Of a DNA stretch of 24,000 bases, positions 2 through 20,603 are shown piece by piece; the stretch's first letter is position 1, and each line of letters starts with the position of its first letter. Both the position numbers and the translations under genes were made by a program. The DNA is from Elstera litoralis (GTDB lineage: Bacteria; Pseudomonadota; Alphaproteobacteria; Elsterales; Elsteraceae): positions 1 through 24,000 of the forward strand of contig NZ_LAJY01000137.1 of NCBI RefSeq assembly GCF_000963705.1, read 5' to 3'. The notes under the pieces are model-generated. The model was not told the DNA's origin. It saw nothing but the letters and a program-made list of their open reading frames with translations, and did no database searches.

Positions 2-427
2 CTCGCCGATGTCGCCAAGGCGCTGCTGCATCAGGTGCCGCACGTCGGCCTGACCATCGATCCCATCGAAGGGCGCGGCTTTGAGTATCACACCGGCGTC
101 GGCTTCACTCTTTTCGCCCGCACGGTGCGCGGCGAATTGGGGCGTGGCGGGCGCTATCGGGCCGGGCCGGAGCAGAGCGAGGCTTCGACCGGCGTGACGC
201 TGGAGATGGACGCGATCCTGCCCGCCGTGCCCGCACCGCCGCCGCGCAAGCGCCTCTTTTTGCCTGTTGGAACGCCAATCGACGTAGGCCCCCGCGCCCG
301 CGCCGAGGGCTGGATCACGATTGCCGGGCTTGACCCGTTGGAAGCGGTTGACGAAACCGCAAAGCGCCTAAACTGCCACGCAATTTTCCGGGGCGGTCGT
401 ATTATCGAGCTTGAGGAACGCGCATGA
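2..427 (+). CDS. hisZ: ATP phosphoribosyltransferase regulatory subunit HisZ, C-terminal part (5' end lies outside the window)
   Basis: The frame is open from the window edge. The translation ...[25 protein letters not shown]...GRGGRY resembles the HisZ/HisRS-like core. Stop TGA 425-427 overlaps the purA ATG (ATGA), a typical hisZ-purA arrangement. Confidence 0.75.
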
Positions 428-1715
428 GCCACGTTGTTGTAGTCGGCTCCCAGTGGGGAGACGAGGGGAAGGGCAAGATCGTCGATTGGCTGTCGGAACG
501 CGCCGATGTGGTCGTGCGCTTCCAGGGCGGCCATAACGCCGGTCACACGCTGGTTATCGACGGGACCGTCTATAAGCTCTCGCTGTTGCCCTCGGGCGTC
601 GTGCGCCAGGGCAAGCTGTCGGTGATCGGCAATGGCGTCGTCGTCGATCCCTGGGCCTTGCTCGCCGAAATCGAACGCATCGCCGCCCAAGGCGTGAAAC
701 TGACACCGGAAAACCTGCGCGTCGCCGATAATGCCGCCCTCATTCTGCCGCTGCACGGCGCGATTGACCGGGCGCGCGAAGAGGCGAGCGGCGCGTCGAA
801 AATCGGCACCACTGGGCGCGGTATCGGCCCGGCCTATGAAGATAAGGTTGCCCGCCGGGCGATCCGCGTCTGCGATCTGGCCGATCCGGCGGAACTGGGT
901 CAGAAGCTCGACCGGCTGCTGACCCATCATAACGCGCTGCTGCGCGGCCTGGGCGCGGCGGAGATGGACAAGGCCGAGCTGCTTCAGCAGTTGCTCGATC
1001 TCGCCCCGCGCCTACTGCCCTTCGCTGGGCCGGTCTGGCGCTTGCTGGACGCCGCCCATAAGGCCGACAAGCGCATTCTGTTCGAAGGCGCGCAAGGGGC
1101 GATGCTGGATGTCGATCACGGCACCTATCCCTTCGTCACCTCGTCCAATACGGTTGCCGGGCAGGCCGCCGCCGGATCGGGCCTCGGGCCGTCGGCGCTG
1201 TCCTATGTGCTGGGGATCACCAAAGCCTATACCACCCGCGTCGGCTCCGGCCCCTTCCCGACCGAGCTTACCGATGCCATCGGCGAGCGGATCGGCGCGA
1301 CGGGTAAGGAATTCGGCGTCGTTACCGGGCGCAAGCGCCGCTGCGGTTGGTTCGATGCCGTCATGGTCCGGCAAGCCATCAAAGTGGGCGGCATCACCGG
1401 CATCGCCCTGACCAAGCTGGACGTGCTGGACGGGTTCGACGAACTCAAAATCTGCACCGGCTATCGGTTGGACGGCGAAGAACTGGACTATCTCCCGGCG
1501 CTGGCCAGCGCCCAGGCGCGGGTCGAGCGATCTATGAAACCCTCGAAGGTTGGGCCGAAAGCACGCAAGGGGCGCGCTCCTGGGCCGATCTGCCCGCGAC
1601 GGCGATTAAATACATCCGCCGCCTCGAAGAACTGATCGAAGCGCCGGTCGCCTTGCTCTCCACTAGCCCGGAGCGCGATGATACGATTTTGGTCCGCGAC
1701 CCGTTCCACCCGTAA
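424..1715 (+). pseudogene. purA: adenylosuccinate synthetase PurA, frame broken as sequenced by a 1-nt deletion near 1528-1529
   Basis: The N-terminus [21 protein letters not shown]...GGHNAGHT is the canonical PurA P-loop. ORF 424..1635 loses similarity after ...AQARVE. ORF 1347..1715 (frame -1) carries the canonical C-terminus IYETLEGW...[45 protein letters not shown]. Restoring one C (GAG CCG ATC) gives about 430 aa. Confidence 0.9.
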
Positions 1716-1945: not shown

Positions 1946-4040
1946 ATGGATTTGGCTGAGACGGAAACGCTTGATCTCGAAAACCCTATGGATGCGGCAG
2001 CCCCCGCGCCCGTAGAGGAGCGAGACGAGGATACGGAAGGACGCTCGGACGCGGTTGTCGAGCTGAAGCAACGCTTTCTGATCTATTCGGATCAGGCGCT
2101 GCCCCAGCTCGATTCAGGCGATTCCTTTGCGTTCCACGCCCAATTGAAGGCAGATACCGCCCGGCCTTTCTTCGCTCTCCTACCGCCCGCCGAAATGCCG
2201 GCGCGGACGGAGATGCTGGAGGCGATGCGGAACCTCAATGTGCCCGGCATGCTGAAACTTGCCGAATGGGGCAAGATCTATTGGCCGCCGGAAAAGCGCT
2301 ACCGCTTCGTTATCGTTCTGGAGCGTCCGGGCGGGGTGCGGGTTTTCCCCGACATCACCGTGCCGCAAGCACCGCTGCAAGAAGAAGAGTTGATCTCGGG
2401 CTTCTTGACACCGCTGCTCCCGACGGTCCGCGAGTTTACCGGGCGCATGCTGTCGCACCGGGCCATCCGCCCCAATAATATCTTCTATGCCGATGCGGGC
2501 CGCCGCTCGATGGTTTTGGGTGAATGCGTTTCCTCGCCGCCCGCCTACGATCAACCGGCAGTTTTTCGAAACCATCGAAAGCGCGATGGCGCACCCGAGC
2601 GCGCGCGGCAATGGCAATAATACCGACGATCTTTACTCGTTGGGCATTACCATGCTGTTCCTGGTTCTGGGCCGTAACCCGGTTTCGGACCTCGATGATG
2701 ATCGTATTCTCGCCAATAAGATCGAGTTCGGCACTTATGCCACGCTCGTCGGCCAAGCCCGGTTGCCGCTGGCGCTGATGGAGCCCCTGCGCGGGCTGCT
2801 CACCGACGATCCGCGTGAGCGCTGGACGCTGCAAGACCTCGATATGTGGCTGGCCGGGCGGCGGCAGTCGCCGAAACAGCCCAAGCTGCCGCAGCGCGCC
2901 TCACGCCCCTTCGTCTTCAACGAAGTTGAATATTTCAACACGCGCAGCCTCGCCAATGCTTTGGCGAAGGACTATATCAATGCCGTCACCGTCGTGCGCT
3001 CCAAGCAGCTCGACGCCTGGTTGCGCCGCAGCCTGAACGACGAGCCGCGCGCCGAAGCGATGCAGCAGGCGGTTTCCTCCACTGCCAATCACATTAGCGC
3101 TGGGCGCGGGTCGGAAGACCGGCTGGTGGCGCGCGCTTGTGTGCCGCTCGATCCGGCAGCCCCGATTCGCTATCGCGGGTTCGGCCTGAACGTCGATGGT
3201 ATCGGCCCGGCGCTGGCCTCGGCGATGAGCCATCGCGAGCGGCGGCAGTTGATCGCCGAAGTCATTTCCTCGCGCCTGCCGATCCATTGGATTTCGGCGC
3301 AAGCCAAACCGCGCCCGGAAGACCTGCGCGCGGTGCAATTGCTCGACCGGCTTCCGGCGATGATCGATAATCCCGCCATCGGGTATGGCGTCGAGCGCTG
3401 CCTCTACGAACTCAATCCCGGCGAACATTGCCATAGCCCGATTTTCGAGCGGGAATATGTCGCCGATCTTTCGCACATCGTTCCGGCGCTGGAACGGATG
3501 GCGCGGCGCTCCAACCGGCCCGAATCGCCGCTCGATCGCCATATCGTCGCCTTCATCGCCGCCCGCGCGCGGCGGATGAATGAGGATGTGGTGAAATCGC
3601 TGCAAAATCCCGATACGGCCACGCGCGCGCTCGCAACCTTGCGCTTGCTCGCCTCCGTGCAGGATCAGACCAATAGCGGCCCGGCCCCAGCCTTGGCGCA
3701 GTGGATGGCGGGAATGCTCGGCGGGGTTGTCGGGTCTTTCCACCACCGCAAGCGCCGCGAAAAAATTGGCGAGCGGGTGCGGCGTGCGGCGATGGACGGG
3801 CAAATGTCCGAACTTCTGTCGGTCGTCGACGATGAAGCGGAACGCGCCTCCGATACGCGCGGCTTTAACGAAGCCGCCTCGGAATATCGCGCCATCGAAT
3901 ATCAGCTCAAGCAGTTCGAAACCGAAAAGCCGCGCCGGGACGATGAATCCCGCCACTTCGGGGAACAGTTGGCGGCGGCTATCGGTGGATTGCTGGTCAG
4001 TGTGGTGACGGCCGTCACCATTTTTGCGACGATGATGTAA
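1946..4040 (+). pseudogene. tail-anchored protein-kinase-fold protein (predicted pseudokinase), frame broken as sequenced by a 1-nt insertion in the T5 run 2562-2566
   Basis: ORFs 1946..2620 and 2487..4040 join as ...SSPPAYDQPAVF|ETIESAMAHP.... Kinase-like subdomains are visible: HRAIRPNNIF (HRDxKxxN-like with Asp replaced by Ala), VLGE in place of DFG, DDLYSLGITMLFLVLGRNP, and DPRERW. A long non-kinase region follows, ending in a hydrophobic C-terminal helix LAAAIGGLLVSVVTAVTIFATMM. About 697 aa once corrected. Confidence 0.7.
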
Positions 4041-4053
4041 AGGGGCTGTTCCG

Positions 4054-4542
4054 ATGGCTGATATGCTGCGACGCCCAGGCCTGAACCGTGGGCAGAAGAA
4101 GAAAACCTCCTCCGTGGCACTCTTGGCCTGGATCATCGTGCCGGTGCTGATGGTTTTTGCCTGGAAGGTGGCCATTCTGGTAACGCTCGGCATGCTGCCG
4201 ACCTTGGTTGCCCTGGTGATCGACCGCCGCCCGGAAAAATATGCGGCCTATTGCGTCGGCGGTTTCAACCTCTGCGGCCTGGTGCCGTGGGTGGTGAAGC
4301 TTTTCGTTGATGGTCAAACCGGCCTTGCGCTGCAACATATTATGACCAACCCCTTCTCGTGGCTGGTGATCTATGGGGCGGCGGCAATGGGCTGGTTGGT
4401 CTTCTCCTGGACGCCGGAGCTGGTACTGCGCATGACCGCCTTCCGCGACCGCCAGGAAATTTCCTCGCTGCAAAAGCGCCAGGAAACCTTAGTGGAAGAA
4501 TGGGGGCCGGATATTATTCCGCCGCGTGCCGAAGAGTTCTAA
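4054..4542 (+). CDS. small integral membrane protein (about 4 TM segments), function unknown
   Basis: 162-aa ORF starting 13 nt after the kinase-like gene. It has four hydrophobic stretches (LLAWIIVPVLMVFAW, VAILVTLGMLPTLVALVI, YCVGGFNLCGLVPWVV, WLVIYGAAAMGWLVFSW) and is followed by a strong terminator. I recognise no family. Confidence 0.6.
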   Translation: MADMLRRPGLNRGQKKKTSSVALLAWIIVPVLMVFAWKVAILVTLGMLPTLVALVIDRRPEKYAAYCVGGFNLCGLVPWVVKLFVDGQTGLALQHIMTNPFSWLVIYGAAAMGWLVFSWTPELVLRMTAFRDRQEISSLQKRQETLVEEWGPDIIPPRAEEF

Positions 4543-4553
4543 ACACTGATATG

Positions 4554-4595
4554 AAAAACCCCCGCCGAACCTATGTTCGGCGGGGGTTTTCCTTT
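4554..4595. terminator. bidirectional rho-independent terminator
   Basis: 12-bp perfect GC-rich stem CCCCCGCCGAAC (4559-4570) / GTTCGGCGGGGG (4575-4586) with a 4-nt loop. An A-run lies upstream and a T-run downstream on both strands. It sits between the convergent membrane-protein gene (+) and the rsr/Y-RNA unit (-). Confidence 0.85.
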
Positions 4596-4609
4596 TCAGC
4601 CGCTTTTCA

Positions 4610-4723
4610 GTGCGACGAGGAAAGATTGAGTAGCAGCTTTCCCGTTTCCAGGAGCCGGGCTTGAACCGACATCTTCCCCCGCATTGGGGGCTGCTGTCCC
4701 AGGAACTCAACCCGCATTCGCAC
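4610..4723 (-). ncRNA. Y-RNA-like RNA with tRNA-like core (YrlA-type candidate), unit 2
   Basis: Minus-strand read. The closing helix is GTGCGA/TCGCAC and the inner helix is GGTTGAGT/ACTCAATC. A hairpin CCCCC-AATGC-GGGGG (4676-4690) follows, then a T-arm GTCGG-TTCAAGC-CCGGC (4654-4670), then a GAAA-tetraloop helix CCTG-GAAA-CGGG (4641-4652). It is co-linear with unit 1, with compensatory changes. It lies downstream of rsr, as known bacterial Y RNAs do. Confidence 0.6.
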
Positions 4724-4732
4724 CGAAGCGAA

Positions 4733-4857
4733 GGTGAGACGACGAAAGCCGATTGGGTAAGAGCTTCCCAGTTTCCCAGGACCGGATTTGAACCGGCACC
4801 CTTCCGCCCGTAAAGGCGGCTGCTCTACCAAGGAACCCAACCGATATTCGTCTCACC
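4733..4857 (-). ncRNA. Y-RNA-like RNA with tRNA-like core (YrlA-type candidate), unit 1
   Basis: Minus-strand read. The closing helix is GGTGAGAC/GTCTCACC and the inner helix is CGGTTGGG/CCCAATCG. It has a D-arm-like GTTCCTTGGTAGAGCA and a hairpin CCGCC-TTTACG-GGCGG (4804-4819). A T-arm GCCGG-TTCAAAT-CCGGT (4781-4797) follows, then a GAAA-capped helix CCTGG-GAAA-CTGGG (4767-4780). There is no canonical acceptor stem or CCA end. Confidence 0.65.
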
Positions 4858-4863
4858 CAACCG

Positions 4864-4981
4864 CGGGCGACGAAGGCTGGATTGAGGAAATGTGGGTCTG
4901 GTCTTAGGGGTGGGATGGCAAATGCCCCCCGCCCCCGGCCAAACTGGTCACAATCCCAGTACCCCAATCCGCATTCGCCCG
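4864..4981 (-). ncRNA. Y-RNA-like RNA without a tRNA-like core (YrlB-like candidate), unit 0
   Basis: Minus-strand read. The closing helix is CGGGCGA/TCGCCCG and the inner helix is GGATTGGGG/CCTCAATCC (one G-U). It shares the 5'-side CGAAT and 3'-side TTCGTCG loop motifs with units 1 and 2, but its central module differs: an ACTGG-GATTGTGA-CCAGT hairpin plus a G-run/C-run hairpin. Confidence 0.45.
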
Positions 4982-4990
4982 ATGCTCTAG

Positions 4991-5015
4991 CGCGCCTTGG
5001 CAAACTCAAGACGCG
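4991..5015 (-). other. 9-bp stem-loop immediately after the rsr stop codon
   Basis: Minus-strand CGCGTCTTG-AGTTTGC-CAAGGCGCG. One pair is a U-G wobble on the minus transcript but would be a C-A mismatch on the plus strand, so it folds better in the rsr sense. No U-tract follows. Confidence 0.5.
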
Positions 5016-6554
5016 CTAAACCGAAGTCTCCTTAATCAAACCCACCCAATCGCCCCCAGACTCCCGGGCGACAAAGCGGTGCATTGCCCCGAACATCCCA
5101 TCGGTAAAACCGCCGAGGTTGAGAATATCGGCGCGTTCCGGCGCTTGGGACGTCCCCAGGGCCTGAAGATCGATGCAGATCAACCGGGCTTCCGGGTTGC
5201 GCGCCTTCACCTCCTCCCAGGCCGCCAACAGCGCGGTACGCTCCGGCTGCGGCGCATCCGCCCAAGATTGATTATCCGAGAGGATAATCACCAGATCCAC
5301 CGCCGTCCGCAGTTCCACCAACGCCCGCAACGGCGCCGAAACCGCCGTGCCATTACCCTTCAGAGCCGCCAGCCGTGCGTGATTCGTCCCGAAATTCGCC
5401 TGCGGATCGAGCGTGATCGGCTGTACCCCCAAATCGAACGGCAGCACGCCAGCCTGCGGATTCTTGCGCAGAATCGCCACCGTCAGCAGCGCAGCCACAT
5501 CGATGCAGAGGAGCTTCGAACTGGCCGACTGCCGGTCTCCGGTCACGGGCGTCTGCATCGAGGGTGAAATATCCGGGCAAATCACTACCCGCCCCGGCAG
5601 TGCCGGAACTTCGGCCAGCGATTCCTCCAAAACCCCCAAGAGGGCAGCCTTGATCAGTTTCGGCACACGGGATTTAAGCGAGGCCAGGGCGATGAGCGCC
5701 TGGTGCGGCATGAGCTTGGCTTTCCGCGCCGCTGCCAGATTGCCCAGACGCGCGGCAACCCGCTCGGTCACGCCTGGAACGGCAAAGGCTCCATGCGCCG
5801 TCAGCGCATTCAGGTTCACCCGCAGCCCGTGCCAGCCCATCCGCTCGCTAAGCTCGGCCCACTGCGCCCCGGTCAACGGACGATGGGTGAGCCATTCGAA
5901 GGGAACCGGCGGCAAAGGCTGCGTCGAGTCCCGCTTCCAGGCCTCAAAGGCGGCAACTTCGGGCGGAAGCGCGGCAAGATCATAAGGCTTGCCGATCAAC
6001 CACCCGTAGAAGGCGCGCCGCGTCGCATCGGCGGGGCGCGGATGAACCAGCCGCACAATGTCGGCCAAGGACGGGTCTTTTCCCGTCGCCGCCTGAAGCA
6101 AAACCGGCATTGGGACTTCCTCCAGCCAGCGCTGCACTAGCCGCTTCGGGCGGGTGCCGAAGGATTTGCGGCCAACCCGGCCCGAACGCACAATCTGAAC
6201 GAAGGTCCGCAGCATCCGCCCGCTATCGATAACGGCGCGAAACACCGGAACCGACAAATCCGGCGCGGCGCGGGTGAGATAGGCCGTTAACAGGGCCGGC
6301 ATATCCTTCATCCGGGCCGTGTGGCGGGCGTAAATCGCCGTTTGCGCCACAAAGATCGGATCGACCTGCGCCGCCGCCGCCAGAACCGCCGTAAGTTGAT
6401 CCTCCGCCTTGCCGTAAAAGCCATCATAGAGCGTGCCTGTGCAGGCCATCTGCGCCAGAAGATGCTCCGCCCCATAGGCATAGGCCAGCGCCCCTTCCTG
6501 GTTACGCGAATGCCCTGTCGGCACTGCCGGGGCAAAAAGCTGGGGATTGGCCAT
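5016..6554 (-). CDS. rsr: Ro60-related protein Rsr (TROVE domain plus C-terminal vWA domain)
   Basis: The ORF is 518 aa in the track. I prefer the ATG at 6554, which has AGGAGG 7 nt upstream, giving 512 aa (MANPQLFAP...). The TROVE-like N-terminal two thirds include GALAYAYGAEHLLAQMACTGTLYDGFYGKAEDQL and FVAQTAIYARHTARMKD. The C-terminal vWA has the MIDAS-type motif DISPS. The gene is adjacent to structured RNAs and divergent from rtcR. Confidence 0.85.
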   Translation of the reverse strand: MANPQLFAPAVPTGHSRNQEGALAYAYGAEHLLAQMACTGTLYDGFYGKAEDQLTAVLAAAAQVDPIFVAQTAIYARHTARMKDMPALLTAYLTRAAPDLSVPVFRAVIDSGRMLRTFVQIVRSGRVGRKSFGTRPKRLVQRWLEEVPMPVLLQAATGKDPSLADIVRLVHPRPADATRRAFYGWLIGKPYDLAALPPEVAAFEAWKRDSTQPLPPVPFEWLTHRPLTGAQWAELSERMGWHGLRVNLNALTAHGAFAVPGVTERVAARLGNLAAARKAKLMPHQALIALASLKSRVPKLIKAALLGVLEESLAEVPALPGRVVICPDISPSMQTPVTGDRQSASSKLLCIDVAALLTVAILRKNPQAGVLPFDLGVQPITLDPQANFGTNHARLAALKGNGTAVSAPLRALVELRTAVDLVIILSDNQSWADAPQPERTALLAAWEEVKARNPEARLICIDLQALGTSQAPERADILNLGGFTDGMFGAMHRFVARESGGDWVGLIKETSV

Positions 6555-6587
6555 CGGAACCTCCTGTCTCACGAATGTGATGAGAAC

Positions 6588-6603
6588 TGCAGGCGGCGTG
6601 CCA
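6588..6603 (-). promoter_or_regulatory. sigma54 (-24/-12) promoter for rsr
   Basis: The minus strand reads TGGCACG-CCGC-CTGCA, against the consensus TGGCACG-N4-TTGCW. GG is at 6602-6601 and GC at 6590-6589, which is exact spacing. The GC dinucleotide is about 35 nt upstream of the rsr ATG. The divergent gene encodes a sigma54 activator. Confidence 0.75.
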
Positions 6604-6620
6604 ACCTCCGAACCTTCCCC

Positions 6621-6735
6621 CCATAATTCTATAAACCATTGTTTTATAGAGAACTATTTTATCGACGGGCGATGCAGGGTGATGACGGGTTTTGAAAATA
6701 ACGATATAGATTTATCGTATTTTATAGTATGAGAT
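6621..6735. promoter_or_regulatory. AT-rich divergent control region with repeated TTTTATAG-type motifs (candidate RtcR UAS and rtcR promoter)
   Basis: There is a sharp AT-rich island in a GC-rich context. An inverted repeat TCTATAAA (6628-6635) / TTTATAGA (6643-6650) has a 7-nt spacer. A second inverted repeat is ACGATA (6701-6706) / TATCGT (6713-6718). Another TTTTATAG copy sits at 6720-6727. It lies 30-140 nt upstream of the sigma54 promoter, the usual position for an enhancer. Confidence 0.4.
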
Positions 6736-6739
6736 AATC

Positions 6740-8349
6740 ATGTCTCGCCCAACCTGCGTTATTGGCTTTCTGGGGTCCAATCTGGACGCGCGCGGCGGAA
6801 CCCGCTGGTCCCGCTGGCGGCCCACCATCGGCCTCTGTCATCAGCCGATCTGCGGGTGGACCGGCTGGTTCTTCTGTATCGAACGCCCCATACCGCGCTA
6901 GCGAACCAGGTTGTTGCCGACCTTGCCGAGGTTTCACCGGAAACGCGCGTTGACCTGCGCTGCCTGGATTTCGACGACCCGTGGAGTTTTGAGGAGGTTT
7001 ATGGGCGGCTGCTGGATTTCGCCCGCGCCTATCCTTTCCAGCCCGACCGGGAGGATTATTTAGTCCACATCACGACCGGAACCCATGTTGCGCAGATCTG
7101 CCTGTTCTTGCTAACCGAGGCGCGGTTTATGCCGGGGCGCTTGGCGCAGACCTTTCCCGATACCGATGGGCGCGGAGGCGGGCGCGGCAAGTGGGCGGCG
7201 ATCGATCTTGATCTGTCGCGGTACGATAGCATCGCCCGCCGTTTTGCTGAGGCGGCGCAGGCCGATGCCTCCTTCCTGAAGTCCGGCATTGCCACGCGCA
7301 ACCCCGCTTTCAATCGGCTGATTGCCGATATTGAAACCGTAGTGTTGGGCAGCCGCGCCCCGATCCTGCTGACAGGGCCGACCGGGGCGGGAAAAACCCA
7401 ACTCGCGCGCCGCATTTATGCGCTCAAAAAGCTGAAACATCAGGTTTCCGGGGCTTTTGTTGAGGTCAATTGTGCCACCTTGCGCGGCGATGGGGCGATG
7501 TCCGCCCTCTTCGGGCATCGGCGCGGGGCTTTCACGGGGGCTATCCAGGACCGCCCCGGCCTGCTGCGCACCGCCGATAAGGGCCTGCTGTTTCTCGACG
7601 AGATCGGCGAACTTGGGCTGGACGAGCAGGCCATGATGCTGCGCGCGCTGGAGGAAAAGCGCTTTCTGCCCGTGGGGGCCGATCTCGAAGTCGGTTCGGA
7701 GTTTCAGTTGATCGCCGGGACCAACCGCGATTTGGGGACCGCCGTTGCCGCCGGGCGGTTCCGCGAGGATCTCTATGCCCGCCTCAATCTCTGGACCTTC
7801 CGTCTGCCCGGCCTTGCCGACCGGCGCGAGGATATCGAACCCAATTTGGCCTATGAGGTGGCGCGGTTCGCCGAGCGCGAGGGCCGCAGCCTGCGCTTTA
7901 CCCGTGAGGCGGAAGCGCGCTACCTGCGCTTTGCCCTGTCGGATGGGGCGCGCTGGACCGGCAATTTTCGGGATCTTGCGGCAAGCCTCACGCGCATGGG
8001 AACCCTTGCCCCCGCCGGACGGATCGATCTTGAAACCGTGGAGGCCGAAATTCTACGGCTAACGGCCTTATGGCAGGGCAGCAGCGGGGGGGCTGCGGAG
8101 GATTCGTTAAGCACGCTCGGCTTTGGCCCCGATGCCTTGGATTTGTTCGACCGGGTTCAATTGGCCGAAGTCGTGCGCGTCTGCCGGGCCGCGCGCAGCG
8201 CGTCGGACGCGGGGCGCACCCTGTTTTCCGCCTCGCGCAGCCAGCGGCGCAGCACCAATGACGCCGACCGGCTACGCAAATATCTCGCGCGCTTCGGGCT
8301 CGATTGGGCAGGGATCACCAGCGGCGGGGCCGCACCACCAGGGCCTTGA
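6740..8349 (+). pseudogene. rtcR: sigma54-dependent transcriptional activator RtcR (CARF domain + AAA+ + HTH), frame broken as sequenced by a 1-nt deletion near 6847
   Basis: ATG 6740 gives MSRPTCVIGFLGSNLDARGGTRWSRWRPTIGLCHQP, an RtcR-type N-terminus, and then runs to a stop. The -1 frame continues DLRVDRLVLLYRTPH... into ORF 6856..8349. That ORF has Walker A GPTGAGKT, the sigma54-contact motif GAFTGA, and the C-terminal NDADRLRKYLARFGL. Restoring one G (CCG GAT) gives about 536 aa. Confidence 0.85.
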
Positions 8350-10912
8350 AGGCTTCCATCAGCGGGATAATAGAAAAACCAATCGCGGCCATCAGCAACC
8401 AGTCGGCAAACGGCAGGGGCTGGAGCCCGAGAAGATCACGCGACCAGGGCACCAATCCCGCCCCGATCTGCAAAACCTGCGTGCCGAGAATGCCCAAAAG
8501 CAGCACAGGGTTACTGGCGAACGGGATCGCCAGAACCGAGCGGCGCTCCGAGCGGCTATTGAGGCAATGGGCGTTTTCGAAGCACAACATCAGCCACAGC
8601 AAGTTAGTTTGCGCCAGCGCCGGGCTGGCCCCCAAGCTCAGAAGAAGCTGATAGGTTGCAAACGCCACGCCGCCAATCCACAGTCCCGAGAGGCTGACCT
8701 GCGTAATCATCAGCGGATCGAACAAAGCCTCGCCGGGCGGGCGCGGGCGACGGTTTAGAATATCCGGCGCGCCTTTCTCGAACGCTAAAGCCACGTCTTG
8801 AATGCCGTTGCTCACCAGATTGAGCCACAGCAATTGCACCGCCGTCAGCGGTGGCGGCGTGTTAGTCGCGGTCGCCAGGACGAACAGCAGCACTTCGGCA
8901 ACGCCGGTTGCAACGGAAAGTTGGATGATTTTGCGGACATTGTCATAGGCCACGCGGCCTTCGGCGATGCCGTTGAGGATGGTGGCGAAACGATCATCGA
9001 CCAGCACCAGATCGGCCGCTTCCCGCGCCACATCGGTGCCATTGCGGCCCATAGCGATGCCGATATCGGCGGCGCGCAAGGCGGGCGCATCATTCACCCC
9101 GTCCCCCGTTACGGCGACCTGATGGCCCAAGCGGCGCAAAGCCTCGACGATTTCCAGCTTTTGCAGTGGCTCAATGCGGGCGAAGACTTTTGCCCGTGCA
9201 ACGGTTGCATCGAATTCCGCCGTTTCCATCGCGGTCAAAGCGGACCCCGTCACAACCTCGCTGTCCGCCTCGGCGAGCCCCAGGCGGCGGGCAATGGCGA
9301 GCGCCGTCAGCGGGTGGTCGCCGGTAATCATCCGCACGTCGATTCCTCCAGTACGGGCGGTTGCAATCGCGCCCGCCGCATCGGGACGGGGCGGATCGAT
9401 GAGCCCGATCAGGCCGACGAGACGATTTCCCTCAAGATGCGCGGCCCCCAACGGCCCGCTAGGCGCGCCCTCCCCTTCCGCAACGGCAATAACTTTATAG
9501 CCCTCAGCGGCTAACCGATTGGCTTCGCCAGACCAGTAAGCGGCATCGCTCTCGGGGCAGAAGCTTAGCAGGGTTTCGAGCGCACCCTTGACGATCACCT
9601 GCCCCGCTCCGGCCTTGTCGCGCAGCACTGCCGCAAATTTCCGTTCGGATTCATAGGGTAAGGTTGCAACCACCGCCGAGGCGCTAAAGCCATGATCGGG
9701 GCCGGAAGCATCGCCGGTCAGCGTTTCGGACCAGGCCAGCAACGCCACATCCACCGCATCGCCCACCGCCCCAACGCGGCGATTCGCGTCATCCGGGCCG
9801 AGCGACGCATCGGTACAATGGCGGGCGAGGGTCGCAAGATCCGTCTCCGAAACGCCCTCCGCCGTCACCACCTCGCCCACGCTCAACTCGTTCAGCGTCA
9901 GCGTGCCGGTTTTGTCGGAGGCGATCAGCGTGGCCGACCCCAGCCCCTCCACCGCCGGTAACGCCCGAACGATCACATTGCGCGCCGCCATTCGCCGCAC
10001 GCTGAGGGAGAGGGCGACGGTAATCGCTACCGGCAAGCCTTCGGGAATGGCCGAAACCGCCAGCGCAATCGCCACCACCATCACCTCGATCAAAGGCGCG
10101 CCGCGCAGGGTTTCTACCAGCGCGATCAGCGCGATCACCCCCAAAATCGCAATCCCGAACACGCGGGTGAACTGGGCGAGGCGCGCGGTGAGCGGCGGTT
10201 GCGGGGCCGGGGCCAAGCGCAGGGAGGCTGAGATTTTACCGATTTCCGTGGCTTCTGCCGTCGCCACCACCAGCCCCAGCGCGCGGCCCGTTTGCACGAG
10301 GCTTCCGGCATACAGCAGACTGGCGCGGTCGCCCAAAGCCGCGTCGGGCGCATCGACGCCGGGGGCTTTGGCCGTGGCGACCGATTCGCCCGTGAGCAGG
10401 CTTTCATCGGCCTGCAAGCCGGTGGCGGTGAGCAGTTTCAGATCGGCGGGCACGCGCATCCCGGTTTCGAGCTTCACCCGGTCGCCGGGGACGAGATCGA
10501 TCACGGGGAGCGTTTGCTCCCGCCCATCGCGGATCGCCACCGCCTGCCCGCCGACCATATGGCGCAAGGCATTCGTTTGCCGTTCGGCCCGCCATTCTTG
10601 GATCGAGCCGATAAGGGCATTCGTGACGAGCACAAATGCGATAAACCCGGCGTCGGTCACATCGTCCAGAAACACGGCAAGCGCCGCCGCCCCCGCCAGA
10701 AGCGCGATGAACGGGCTAACGAACTGGGCGAGGAACACGCGCCAGAACGGCTTTCCCGGCGGTTGCGGTAGTTGATTGGGGCCAACCGCGATCAAGCGTT
10801 GGGCGGCCTCATCCGAACTCAGCCCCTCCGCCGGGCTGACGAGCGCGCTTTGGCACGCCTCGGGGGTTTGGGAAAAAGCGGTGGGCAAAAAAGCGGGGGG
10901 CGTTTGGATCAT
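8315..10912 (-). CDS. cation-transporting P-type ATPase (P2-type, Ca2+/Mg2+-like)
   Basis: Intact 865-aa ORF with a cation-ATPase N-terminal domain (GLSSDEAAQRL). It carries TGES, the TM4 motif AIPEGLP, the phosphorylation site SDKTGTLT, TGDHPLTA, and the hinge motif VTGDGVNDAPAL. Its 3' end overlaps rtcR convergently by 35 nt. Confidence 0.9.
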   Translation of the reverse strand: MIQTPPAFLPTAFSQTPEACQSALVSPAEGLSSDEAAQRLIAVGPNQLPQPPGKPFWRVFLAQFVSPFIALLAGAAALAVFLDDVTDAGFIAFVLVTNALIGSIQEWRAERQTNALRHMVGGQAVAIRDGREQTLPVIDLVPGDRVKLETGMRVPADLKLLTATGLQADESLLTGESVATAKAPGVDAPDAALGDRASLLYAGSLVQTGRALGLVVATAEATEIGKISASLRLAPAPQPPLTARLAQFTRVFGIAILGVIALIALVETLRGAPLIEVMVVAIALAVSAIPEGLPVAITVALSLSVRRMAARNVIVRALPAVEGLGSATLIASDKTGTLTLNELSVGEVVTAEGVSETDLATLARHCTDASLGPDDANRRVGAVGDAVDVALLAWSETLTGDASGPDHGFSASAVVATLPYESERKFAAVLRDKAGAGQVIVKGALETLLSFCPESDAAYWSGEANRLAAEGYKVIAVAEGEGAPSGPLGAAHLEGNRLVGLIGLIDPPRPDAAGAIATARTGGIDVRMITGDHPLTALAIARRLGLAEADSEVVTGSALTAMETAEFDATVARAKVFARIEPLQKLEIVEALRRLGHQVAVTGDGVNDAPALRAADIGIAMGRNGTDVAREAADLVLVDDRFATILNGIAEGRVAYDNVRKIIQLSVATGVAEVLLFVLATATNTPPPLTAVQLLWLNLVSNGIQDVALAFEKGAPDILNRRPRPPGEALFDPLMITQVSLSGLWIGGVAFATYQLLLSLGASPALAQTNLLWLMLCFENAHCLNSRSERRSVLAIPFASNPVLLLGILGTQVLQIGAGLVPWSRDLLGLQPLPFADWLLMAAIGFSIIPLMEAFKALVVRPRRW

Positions 10913-12368: not shown

Positions 12369-13762
<1,394 letters not shown>

Positions 13763-18708: not shown

Positions 18709-20603
18709 CGCCCGACATCCTCGATGGGGGCCGAATCCTCCGCTATGCAAACGTGATGGTGCCGATGCGCGACGGCGTGCGCCTGGCCACCGATCTTTAT
18801 TTGCCCGCGCAAGAGGGCGTTGCGGTCGAAGCGCCGCTACCGCTTCTGCTGGAGCGCACGCCCTACGATAAAACCGCAGCGCCGCTCTCTGAAATCTCGG
18901 TCGCCGACCGCACGCCAATGCCGCGCGCCGCTATCGCCGGCCATTTCGCCCGTGCCGGCTATGCCGTGGCGATTCAGGATTGCCGGGGCCGCTATGCGTC
19001 GGAAGGCAGTTTTAGCAAATATACCGGCGAGGCCGCCGATGGGGCCGATACGCTGGCCTGGGCGGTTGCGCAACCTGGTGCGACGGGCGGATTGCGACCT
19101 GGGGGCTGTCCTACGGAGCCCACGCGCAAATGGCCCTCGCCTGCCTCAATCCCCCCGGTCTGGTGGGCATGCTGCTCGATAGCGGCGGTTTCGCCAATGC
19201 CTTTCAGGGCGGCATTCGTCAGGGTGGCGCGTTCGAGTTGAAGCAAGCGACCTGGGCGTTTAAGCACGCGCGCCTCAGCCGAACCGCAAAGGCCGATCCC
19301 CTGATCGCCGCCGCCCTGGACGCCGAAAACATCACCGACTGGTTCCACCGACTGCCCTGGAAGCCGGGCCACAGCCCGTTACGCTGGGTGCCGGAGTATG
19401 AAGACTATTTCTTCAGCCAGTGGCAGGCGGAAAGCTTCGATGAAAGCTGGCAGAAACCCGGCCTTTACGCCCTCGGCCATGTCGACGCGATCCCCGATGT
19501 TCCGATTCTGCTGATCTCAAGCTGGTACGATCCCTACCCGCGCTCGGCGGCGGAGAATTTCGTAGCCCTCACGGGCAGCAAGCGCACGAGTCCCGCCTTT
19601 CTGGTGCTCGGCCCCTGGCTGCACGGTCGGCGCAGTGAGACCCATTCGGGCGATGCCGATTTCGGCCCGGCGGCAACACTCGACGGCACCCTGGCGGAAA
19701 ATTTTCTTCAGTTTAGGCTGGCGTGGTTCAATCGGCTGTTTGACCGCGCCGCGCCGCCGCCGCCGCCCGCCGTGCGCTACTTCCGCATGGGGGGCGGCAC
19801 GGGCCGCAAAACCGCTGAAGGCCGCTTGGATCACGGCGGCACGTGGATGCAGGCCGACACCTGGCCGCCGAGCGCAACGACGCAGGATTTCTTCCTAACC
19901 AAAGACGGCGGCTTTTCCCGCGAGGCACCTGAAGACGTCGTGCGCTATCGCAGTTACCTGTCCGACCCCGCCCATCCGGTCCCCAGCATCGGCGGGGCGA
20001 TTACCTCCGGCGCGCCGATTATGGAGGGCGGCGGCTTCGATCAGCGCGAAGAAGCGCGCTTCTTCGGCTCCCGCGCCCCCTATCTACCCCTCGCCAGCCG
20101 CGCCGACGTGCTGGTGTTCGAAACCGCGCCGCTCGCCGAGGATTTAGACGTGACCGGGCCGATTGTGGTCGAGCTTTTCGTACAATCTTCTGCCCCGGAC
20201 GTGGACCTGTGTATTAAGCTCATCGACGTGTACCCGCCCTCGCCCGATTATCCGCAAGGGTTCGCCCTCAATCTGACCGACGGTATTCAACGCTGCCGCT
20301 TTCGCGACGGCTGGGAGGTGCCTCAGCCGATGGAGCCTGATCGTATCTACCGCGTGCGGGTCGAAGCCTTTCCCACCGCCAACCTGTTCAAAGCCGGGCA
20401 CCGCCTGCGCCTCGATATTGCCAGTTCCAACTTCCCCCATTTCGACGTGAACCCGCAGACCGGCGCCCCCCGCCTGGAAAAGCGGCCCGACCCAAACCGC
20501 CACCGTGCGGATCTATCTAGACGCGGCGCACCCGTCGCGCCTGCTGCTGCCCGTCAATCCCACTGCAACGCCGCTGCTTAACCAAACTCAGGGAGATGAA
20601 TGA
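18705..20603 (+). pseudogene. CocE/NonD-family (peptidase S15, X-Pro dipeptidyl-peptidase-like) hydrolase, two 1-nt indels as sequenced (about 19075 and the C6 run 20466-20471)
   Basis: The N-terminal MVPMRDGVRLATDLYLP...PLLLERTPYDK and AGYAVAIQDCRGRYASEG are typical. After AVAQP the conserved sequence continues in the -1 frame as WCDGRIATWGLSYGAHAQ, which holds the GxSYxG nucleophile motif. Near the end, ...FDVNPQTGAP continues in the +1 frame as AWKSGPTQTATVRIYLDAAHPSRLLLPV, the family C-terminus. The gene then ends at TGA 20601-20603, overlapping the next ATG. Confidence 0.85.

Follow-up and report, generated by a model that had tools for sequence, protein, structure and literature searches.

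A 24-kb stretch of Elstera litoralis DNA (contig NZ_LAJY01000137.1, positions 1 to 24,000; 24,000 nucleotides, hereafter the window) carries rtcR, the gene for a sigma54 enhancer-binding protein, divergent from rsr, which encodes a Ro60 orthologue and is followed by three tandem Y RNAs. This locus is probably a reduced derivative, specific to the lineage of Elstera-like alphaproteobacteria, of the known rtcR/rsr–Y RNA–rtcB–rtcA RNA-repair operon. The ligase gene rtcB and the cyclase gene rtcA are absent from it, and by analogy with characterized systems RtcR appears to switch on Ro60 and three Y RNAs only. Surveys have described rtcR-rtcBA and rtcR-ro-rtcB-rtcA arrangements (PMC3854526, PMC4201824, PMC7790460); an rtcR-ro-only arrangement is not described in these three, and other comparative work might list one. 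A literature search pairing Elstera with RtcB found nothing. The arrangement is new as a conserved gene-loss variant; it is not a new kind of system. Its features are as follows.

4554 to 4595, both strands: terminator, predicted 18-bp stem with a G+C-rich core and U runs on either side
4608 to 4983, minus strand: small RNA array of three tandem units, Ya, Yb and Yc
4608 to 4726, minus strand: Yc, with the architecture of Yb; D stem CAGC/GCUG
4733 to 4858, minus strand: Yb, with a terminal helix of the Ro-binding type and a tRNA-like four-way junction
4862 to 4983, minus strand: Ya, with a long terminal helix and an exact GNCGAAN0-1G motif (GGCGAAUG, 4972 to 4979)
5016 to 6554, minus strand: rsr, Ro60 orthologue of 512 aa, by Pfam, profile and fold matches
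D328/S330/S332 of Rsr: DxSxS motif of the metal-ion-dependent adhesion site (MIDAS) in the vWA domain
6560 to 6565, minus strand: Shine-Dalgarno sequence AGGAGG of rsr
Between 6554 and 6740: rsr-rtcR intergenic region, 185 nt, AT-rich
6588 to 6603, minus strand: sigma54 promoter TGGCAC-GCCGC-CTGCA (TGGCACGCCGCCTGCA), with the -24 GG at 6601 to 6602 and the -12 GC at 6590 to 6591
6628 to 6650: inverted repeat TCTATAAAACAATGGTTTATAGA, holding an IHF-like site, between the candidate upstream activating site and the promoter
6701 to 6718: inverted repeat ACGATAAATCTATATCGT, candidate RtcR upstream activating site (UAS), ~100 to 115 nt upstream of the -24 element
6740 to 8349 (1610 nt), plus strand: rtcR, sigma54 enhancer-binding protein with CARF-like, AAA+ and helix-turn-helix domains
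6740 to 6901, plus strand: rtcR N-terminal fragment, with its stop at 6899 to 6901
6856 to 8349, plus strand: rtcR main open reading frame (ORF), start GTG 6856
7375 to 7398, plus strand: Walker A motif GPTGAGKT of the RtcR AAA+ domain
7525 to 7542, plus strand: GAFTGA, the sigma54-contact loop of RtcR
7597 to 7608, plus strand: DEIG motif of the RtcR AAA+ domain

Loss of rtcB and rtcA in Elstera-like genomes

Comparison was made with 118 related rsr loci (80 of them from GTDB species genomes, 34 from metagenomes and 4 from an exact-protein look-up), cited here by L numbers; the span searched was the whole window and, in the relatives, 10 kb on either side of the locus (less at contig ends). 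Of the 111 loci whose downstream sequence is long enough to judge, 106 have rtcB directly after the Y RNA array; rtcA is present as well in nearly all of the 106, often with rlaP in between. The five loci without rtcB are the window, L001, L002, L005 and L085, all of them Elstera-like and flanked by the same genes. The synteny comparison proposed by an earlier sequence-only reading of this DNA thus finds the reduced layout of rtcR, sigma54 promoter, rsr, Y RNAs and terminator conserved in four other Elstera-like genomes at ~90% DNA identity, and rtcB present in the other 106 informative relatives. The nearest named relatives are metagenome-assembled genomes of Elstera sp. (Rsr 83% and DNA 87–89% identical), and two metagenome contigs reach ~91% DNA identity to the window. 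Elstera is placed in Rhodospirillales.

Searches for the missing genes were negative. With RtcB, RtcA and RlaP seeds from the closest relatives, tblastn over the whole 24 kb gave noise (all E > 0.1), with no match for RtcB at E <= 2 and none for RtcA at E <= 0.9. No rtcB was found at the loci of L001, L002, L005 and L085, and no rtcA within 10 kb downstream in L001 and L085. The possibility of a pseudogenised rtcBA was rejected, as tblastn relaxed to E <= 10, run to pick up any remnant of RtcB, RtcA, RlaP or a 147-aa operon gene, likewise returned noise only. Set beside the Salmonella-type operon, the window possesses the divergent rtcR and the sigma54 promoter with its -24 GG and -12 GC, and lacks both rtcB and rtcA.

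The sequence-only reading had also claimed a strong terminator directly after the RNAs and no room for the two enzyme genes, and both claims held. Although missed by a generic terminator scan, the bidirectional intrinsic terminator at 4554–4595 was confirmed by direct folding (-35.2 kcal/mol, z -7.9) and by its U runs, and it is kept with compensatory changes in five genomes. It closes both the rsr–Y RNA unit and a convergent gene for a 162-aa protein (4054–4542), which comes next and leaves no space for rtcB or rtcA.

Because the Elstera clade is nested among rtcBA-bearing lineages in a neighbour-joining RtcR tree, loss of rtcBA from an ancestral rtcR/rsr-Y-rtcBA operon would be the parsimonious account, with the reduced layout as the derived state. 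Among the related operons, an RlaP nucleotidyltransferase gene (PF10127) often lies between rtcB and rtcA, for example at 13385–14625 of L003, and a 147-aa gene without detectable family is sometimes found there as well.

Selection on the reduced module

Pairwise Nei-Gojobori estimates of omega, the ratio of nonsynonymous to synonymous divergence, were obtained among the window, L001, L005 and L085. For rtcR, omega is 0.05–0.08 at a synonymous divergence (dS) of 0.2–0.3, with 0.05–0.10 for the CARF domain and 0.02–0.04 for the AAA+ domain (dS up to 0.4). Purifying selection acts on the CARF, AAA+ and C-terminal domains alike, and the domain values resemble those of purA, fumC and the neighbouring ATPase gene. 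The window copy of rtcR shows no relaxation against the three relatives (0.053–0.069). For rsr, omega is 0.05–0.18, and the promoter, UAS-like repeat, Shine-Dalgarno sequence and terminator are conserved in Elstera-like loci. On these sequence comparisons, the RtcR sensor is maintained by selection in a lineage without rtcBA, where rsr and the Y RNAs are its sole visible target; the Y RNA helices, too, are kept by structural selection.

RtcR and its interrupted reading frame

The sequence-only reading had described 6740–8349 as a divergent rtcR with CARF domain, GAFTGA and Walker A. The orientation, the RtcR/CARF domain and both motifs are all present, but the interval is not a single ORF: one nucleotide is missing at 6847 (CCC to CC), so that the frame changes after the first 36 codons and the initiating frame runs into the stop at 6899–6901. 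Profile searches support the identity of both pieces, although the frame is interrupted. Pfam RtcR (PF06956, cut-off 23.1 bits) matches with profile positions 2–36 on the fragment at 6740–6850 (36.7 bits) and with positions 40–183 on ORF 6856–8349 (197.9 bits), and Sigma54_activat (PF00158) scores 160.8 bits on the window RtcR. With one C restored, a 536-aa RtcR results that is identical to the L001 protein at 519 of 536 positions. The intact L001 orthologue reaches 771.7 bits with the NCBIfam equivalog NF038308 (cut-off 650) and 810 bits with the PADLOC RtcR model.

Three further genes are split in the window, namely purA (at 1529), a gene for a 697-aa protein (at 2566) and an S15 peptidase gene (~19130–19241). 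The changes at 1529, 2566 and 6847 are uncompensated single-base changes in homopolymer length that occur in the window alone; all three sites are intact in L001, L005 and L085, and all comparator genomes are intact at the rtcR site. Since the housekeeping gene purA and two other genes are likewise broken only here, and since selection on rtcR is unrelaxed, the frameshift at 6847 is most likely a sequencing or assembly error, and from the sequence it looks systematic. The view of rtcR as a true pseudogene (omega ~0.06, with purA, the 697-aa gene and the S15 peptidase gene also split) was rejected as the leading one. At two of the three comparable frameshift sites, a C was lost immediately 5' of GATC.

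The rsr-rtcR intergenic region

The near-perfect -24/-12 promoter that the sequence-only reading had recognized between the two genes proved to be unique in the window and conserved in relatives. The pattern TGGCAY-N5-YTGCW matches only at 6588–6603 in the 24 kb, with 0.12 sites expected by chance. The promoter stands 49 nt before the rsr ATG, a position shared by L001, L002 and L005, and all four Elstera-like loci that were aligned or scanned retain it; a strict regular expression places this motif type before rsr in 53 of 84 loci. Transcription of rsr is predicted to start near 6578.

Two inverted repeats lie upstream of the promoter. The core of the 6701–6718 repeat, CGATAAAT.T.TATCGT, does not vary among the four aligned Elstera-like loci, and similar repeats of the GGATAAAAGACTATCC type adjoin the rtcR start in relatives; on sequence grounds, this repeat is a candidate upstream activating site for RtcR. 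The 6628–6650 repeat contains AAACAATGGTTTA, to be compared with the IHF consensus WATCAANNNNTTR, and relatives have IHF-like matches at the corresponding place, such as AATCAATGGCTTG in L075, making it a candidate IHF site. The order of UAS, IHF site and promoter is the usual layout of sigma54 promoters, from which we infer the functions of the elements.

For rtcR itself, a sigma70-like candidate promoter (GTGCCA-18-CATAAT, 6598–6627, plus strand) overlaps the sigma54 promoter on the opposite strand. This overlap could link rtcR expression to promoter occupancy.

The rsr leaders of relatives hold further RNA elements 3' of the sigma54 promoter. A conserved GC-rich hairpin, GGGGCGGCCGG-AAUGGG-CCGGCCGCCCC, occupies this position in 80 of 114 related loci (for example, ~9945–9975 in L011 and ~9937–9966 in L004); its stem covaries, and it matched no Rfam family in the loci tested. 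All Elstera-like loci, the window included, are without it. A tRNA or tRNA-like element stands 3' of the promoter in the rsr leader of L003 (Sphingomonas sp. LM7, 9903–9978; 55.5 bits with the Rfam tRNA model), several Sphingomonadales have such an element, and T-loop motifs were found in the rsr leaders of 22 loci.

Three Y RNAs with a distinct architecture

The structured RNAs that had been suspected after rsr are now resolved as three tandem Y RNA units at 4608–4983, each ~125 nt long with a period of ~128 nt, delimited by CGAA motifs at 4977, 4850 and 4720 and CGUCG motifs at 4872, 4744 and 4617. The array begins 33 nt past the rsr stop on the minus strand, within the limits of 4 kb from rsr and the same strand used by Chen et al. 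2014. In each unit, folding joins the 5' and 3' ends in a long helix (z -2.5 to -3.7). The motif GNCGAAN0-1G, a proposed Rsr-recognition element (PMC4201824), is one position off in both Yb (GACGAAUA) and Yc (UGCGAAUG) and exact in the Yb of L002 and L005.

Yb, whose minimum free energy fold equals the centroid (-57.3 kcal/mol, z -3.7), contains a junction whose D stem is split (GAGC/GCUC) and which further comprises an anticodon-like hairpin, a T arm (GGUUCAAAUCC) and a GAAA-closed acceptor-like stem. In both Yb and Yc, the elements follow in the order GGUAGAGC (D loop and 3' D stem), anticodon-like hairpin, T arm, GAAA-closed acceptor-like stem and AGCUC (5' D stem), and the D stem of Yc is compensatory with respect to that of Yb. 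Ya (minimum free energy -58.1 kcal/mol, z -3.4) has no tRNA-like T loop or tRNA-like domain, and its centre varies between genomes.

The pairing was assessed over nine Elstera copies of Yb and Yc. In the predicted structure, 92.5% of cells pair, compared with 35–48% when the partners are slid; 15 of 41 pairs are changed on both sides, and none of 500 shuffles reaches the covariation score. Terminal helices 1 and 2 each show changes on both sides in 5 of 10 pairs, and the T and acceptor-like stems covary as well. A covariance model built from the nine copies alone matched 166 times (E <= 0.01) in 81 sources, always on the rsr strand; those match coordinates that were inspected by eye fall in the rsr-rtcB gap. 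Built without Ya, the model nevertheless recovers Ya (30 bits, E 3e-5). Over 150 aligned matches covariation is strong, although the alignment was itself fitted to the model. Because of this covariation and the matches in rsr-rtcB gaps elsewhere, Ya, Yb and Yc are identified as Y RNAs of the same superfamily as those of the rsr-rtcB gaps.

At gathering thresholds, Rfam matched nothing in the window, and ARAGORN reported no tRNA or tmRNA. At E <= 10, the only relevant Rfam match was that of the tRNA model to Yb (4773–4834), whose 27.8 bits lie just below the gathering score of 29. The split D stem with an anticodon-like hairpin (4608–4858 in the window; 8273–8398 in L047 and 12071–12198 in L012, for example) is a sub-architecture missed by Rfam YrlA, and the Elstera-only model gives split-D-stem units of relatives up to 83 bits. 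A rough classification by regular expression finds the classical and split-D-stem types side by side in relatives, and Elstera loci without the classical type, which almost all rtcBA-bearing relatives possess.

Two Y RNA haplotypes, differing by many compensatory changes, occur in the five Elstera-like genomes. The segment 4600–6000 (rsr codons ~185–512, Yb and Yc) is 97–100% identical to L001 per 200-nt bin (4601–4800 and 5001–6000) and 66–80% identical to L002 and L005; positions 5000–5999 are ~99% identical to L085, with flanks at just ~90%. The centre of Ya (4858–4954) shows yet another mosaic pattern. From these sequence identities, two divergent haplotypes of the rsr 3' part and Y RNAs appear to have been swapped by recombination among related species.

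A divergent Ro60

The assignment of ORF 5016–6554 to the TROVE/Ro60 family was upheld by the vWA domain, a structure-anchored profile and the predicted fold, although the Pfam TROVE model itself stayed below threshold (15.2 versus 23 bits). Pfam vWA_Ro60 (PF25045) scores 52.2 bits (cut-off 27.7), and the MIDAS residues D328, S330 and S332 are invariant in the family alignment. The NCBIfam Rsr equivalog NF041674 reached 47.1 bits of a cut-off of 900, on the C-terminal half only. A ten-member Rsr family profile aligns with Deinococcus radiodurans Rsr (2NVO, residues 18–499, E 4.5e-20) and also with human and Xenopus Ro60. In the AlphaFold model (pLDDT 80.7), the top 13 significant full-length fold matches are all Ro60, Rsr or TROVE proteins (TM 0.58–0.65, E 1e-12 to 1e-17); these matches and the 2NVO profile alignment cover the N-terminal HEAT-repeat (TROVE) ring. 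The window Rsr is a genuine full-length Ro60 of a divergent subfamily.

An 11-bp hairpin at 4989–5017 (minus strand), read from the sequence, takes in the A and the G that end the rsr TAG stop. The region is conserved among Elstera-like genomes in the alignment, and the hairpin could be a processing or stability element.

Relation to known RtcR and Ro60 systems

The closest homologues are rtcR/rsr-(2–6 Y RNAs)-rtcB-(rlaP)-rtcA loci of Sphingomonadales, Nitrospirillum and other alpha- and betaproteobacteria (L003–L118), whose Rsr is 49–62% identical to that of the window and whose RtcR is 54–98% identical to the better of two seeds (L001 or Nitrospirillum L004). They share the promoter motif, similar UAS-like repeats and the Y RNA superfamily, including split-D-stem units. 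Unlike the window, they always have rtcB and nearly always rtcA, and most carry classical YrlA units with an intact D-arm hairpin. The Salmonella enterica Typhimurium locus rtcR/rsr-yrlB-yrlA-rtcB-rtcA (Chen 2013; Hughes 2020, PMC7790460) has in common with the window a divergent CARF/AAA+/helix-turn-helix RtcR, a sigma54 promoter, rsr as the first gene and, immediately after it on the same strand, Y RNAs that have a tRNA-like domain and a terminal helix of the GNCGAA type. The window differs in its lack of rtcB and rtcA, its terminator after the Y RNAs, its three Y RNAs instead of two, the topology of its tRNA-like domain and its very short 5' leader.

Compared with classical YrlA (RF02553; Chen et al. 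2014), the window units share the rsr-adjacent site on the same strand, the CGAA terminal helix, the tRNA-like T loop and the closed acceptor-like stem. In YrlA, however, the Ro-binding helix takes the place of the anticodon stem and the D-arm hairpin is intact, whereas in the window the helix enters via the D loop and an anticodon-like hairpin is present. The Rsr-Yrn1-PNPase ribonucleoprotein (RYPER) of D. radiodurans resembles the window in its Ro60 orthologue, its adjacent Y RNA and the lack of linked rtcBA. Yrn1 has an anticodon-like arm with a 5-bp stem and a 6-nt loop and partial D-arm features (PMC4201824), a description that Yb and Yc resemble. Deinococcus, in contrast, has no RtcR or sigma54 control, and sequence identity is ~20% over the structural alignment. 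Escherichia coli rtcR-rtcBA shares the RtcR-type activator and divergent sigma54 control, but there the enzymes come without rsr or Y RNAs, so that the window locus is the reciprocal subset.

Proposed mechanism

By analogy with Salmonella, RtcR would sense RNA damage through its CARF domain; the Salmonella ligand is 5' tRNA halves ending in a 2',3'-cyclic phosphate (PMC7790460). The activated protein would oligomerise, bind the upstream inverted repeat and open the sigma54 promoter with the aid of IHF bending, giving one transcript of ~2 kb from ~6578 to 4555, with the Y RNAs processed from its 3' part. Their GNCGAA terminal helices would bind Rsr, as in Deinococcus and Salmonella (PMC4201824, PMC7790460), and the resulting ribonucleoprotein (RNP), probably tethered to an exonuclease such as PNPase, would degrade or sequester damaged structured RNA. 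The output of the sensor would here be RNA surveillance and decay with no co-expressed ligation or end-healing. Lacking RtcB, the module would have no ligation-based removal of the ligand and, lacking RtcA, no conversion of 3'-phosphate to cyclic ends; signal generation and shut-off would therefore rely on other enzymes.

Alternative explanations

Several points weigh against this account. The rtcR gene as given in the window is frameshifted. Rfam YrlA (RF02553, gathering score 69 bits) has no match in the window at its gathering threshold, nor at E <= 10 on 4450–5100, but does match Variovorax L075 (73.3 bits). RtcR dependence, co-transcription, Y RNA processing, Rsr binding and PNPase tethering are steps that we infer from homology. 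Salmonella RtcA helps to make the activating ligand in some conditions (PMC7790460), and by analogy a module without RtcA may sense differently. Finally, unlinked rtcB and rtcA genes, possibly with an RtcR-dependent promoter of their own, are plausible. In the strongest form of the reduced-operon account, Elstera would be wholly without RtcB and RtcA, and RtcR would answer broken tRNAs with the Ro60/Y RNA particle alone, degrading or sequestering them with no repair; we offer this form tentatively and regard it as possible, though doubtful.

The distribution of rtcB and rtcA bears directly on the proposal that one or both were relocated in the Elstera genome, perhaps behind a second RtcR-dependent sigma54 promoter, so that the operon is split and damage sensing is still coupled to ligation. 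RtcA and RtcB homologues are usually genetically unlinked in bacteria, the rtcBA operon being the exception (Das and Shuman, PMC3854526), and a larger regulon would account for the strong purifying selection on rtcR just as well. Yet neither gene occurs in the 24 kb or in the searched surroundings of the locus in four related genomes, the window has a single sigma54-type site, and the genes remain in cis in all 106 informative relatives, so that relocation would be unusual for the clade; we consider it unlikely. The deletion at 6847, present in the sequence as given, instead invites the idea of a module decaying in this strain, with a real frameshift that leaves RtcR either inactive or, starting at GTG 6856, N-terminally truncated and deregulated, and the rsr/Y RNA unit silent or constitutive. 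In E. coli and Salmonella, RtcR is indeed constitutively active once its CARF domain has been removed completely (PMC7790460, PMC3854526). The similar frameshifts in purA and two other genes, confined to the window, the unrelaxed omega of the window rtcR and the intact site in every comparator leave this idea very improbable. Expression of rsr and the Y RNAs independently of RtcR, for instance from a sigma70 promoter, with rtcR a leftover that has another target, is hardly credible: the sigma54 promoter, UAS-like repeat and IHF-like site keep fixed positions in the four aligned Elstera-like loci and are homologous to elements of rtcBA-bearing relatives, and all three RtcR domains are under purifying selection. 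What speaks for such independence is a weak sigma70-like site upstream on the rsr strand (6746–6719, 9 of 12 matches) and the RtcR-free expression of rsr and Y RNAs in Deinococcus and Mycobacterium smegmatis (PMC4201824).

Neighbouring genes

The genes around the locus are as follows.

424 to 1715, plus strand: purA, in the left part of the window
1946 to 4040, plus strand: gene for the 697-aa protein, convergent on the rsr unit
4054 to 4542, plus strand: gene for the 162-aa protein, convergent on the rsr unit and next after the terminator
3' of rtcR: P-type ATPase gene, convergent with rtcR

The 697-aa protein has a divergent Ser/Thr-kinase-like N-terminal domain, with weak matches to the LanL kinase region, PD-T4-6 and twitchin kinase, and family searches with the 162-aa protein gave no detectable family. 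The pair is conserved and convergent on the rsr unit, and no evidence was found that ties it to the rtcR-rsr module. By Pfam, the remaining ORFs of the window encode transporters, a fumarase, a peptidase and similar genes.

Implications for Ro60 and Y RNA biology

The reduced-operon account, under which Elstera-like bacteria probably lost rtcBA and kept the rest, is unsurprising to specialists, and it provides a clean natural case of RtcR sensing coupled to Ro/Y RNA only. The Rfam YrlA model overlooks a widespread Y RNA sub-architecture, represented here by Yb and Yc. In Salmonella, the role of Ro60 and Y RNA is hard to separate from that of RtcB and RtcA, which both use up the RtcR ligand and produce it. 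That sensor, promoter, Ro60 and Y RNAs were retained under purifying selection after loss of the ligase and cyclase from the operon argues for an independent function of the Ro/Y RNP in RtcR-sensed stress, and the locus offers a simpler natural circuit for studying the targets of the RNP, signal shut-off without RtcB and the need for RtcA in making the ligand. If Elstera is indeed wholly without RtcB and RtcA, the RtcR pathway would have in Rsr and the Y RNAs an output that is selectable and sufficient by itself, these components would not be accessories of the ligase, and the split-D-stem tRNA-like Y RNAs kept here would be the functionally essential type.

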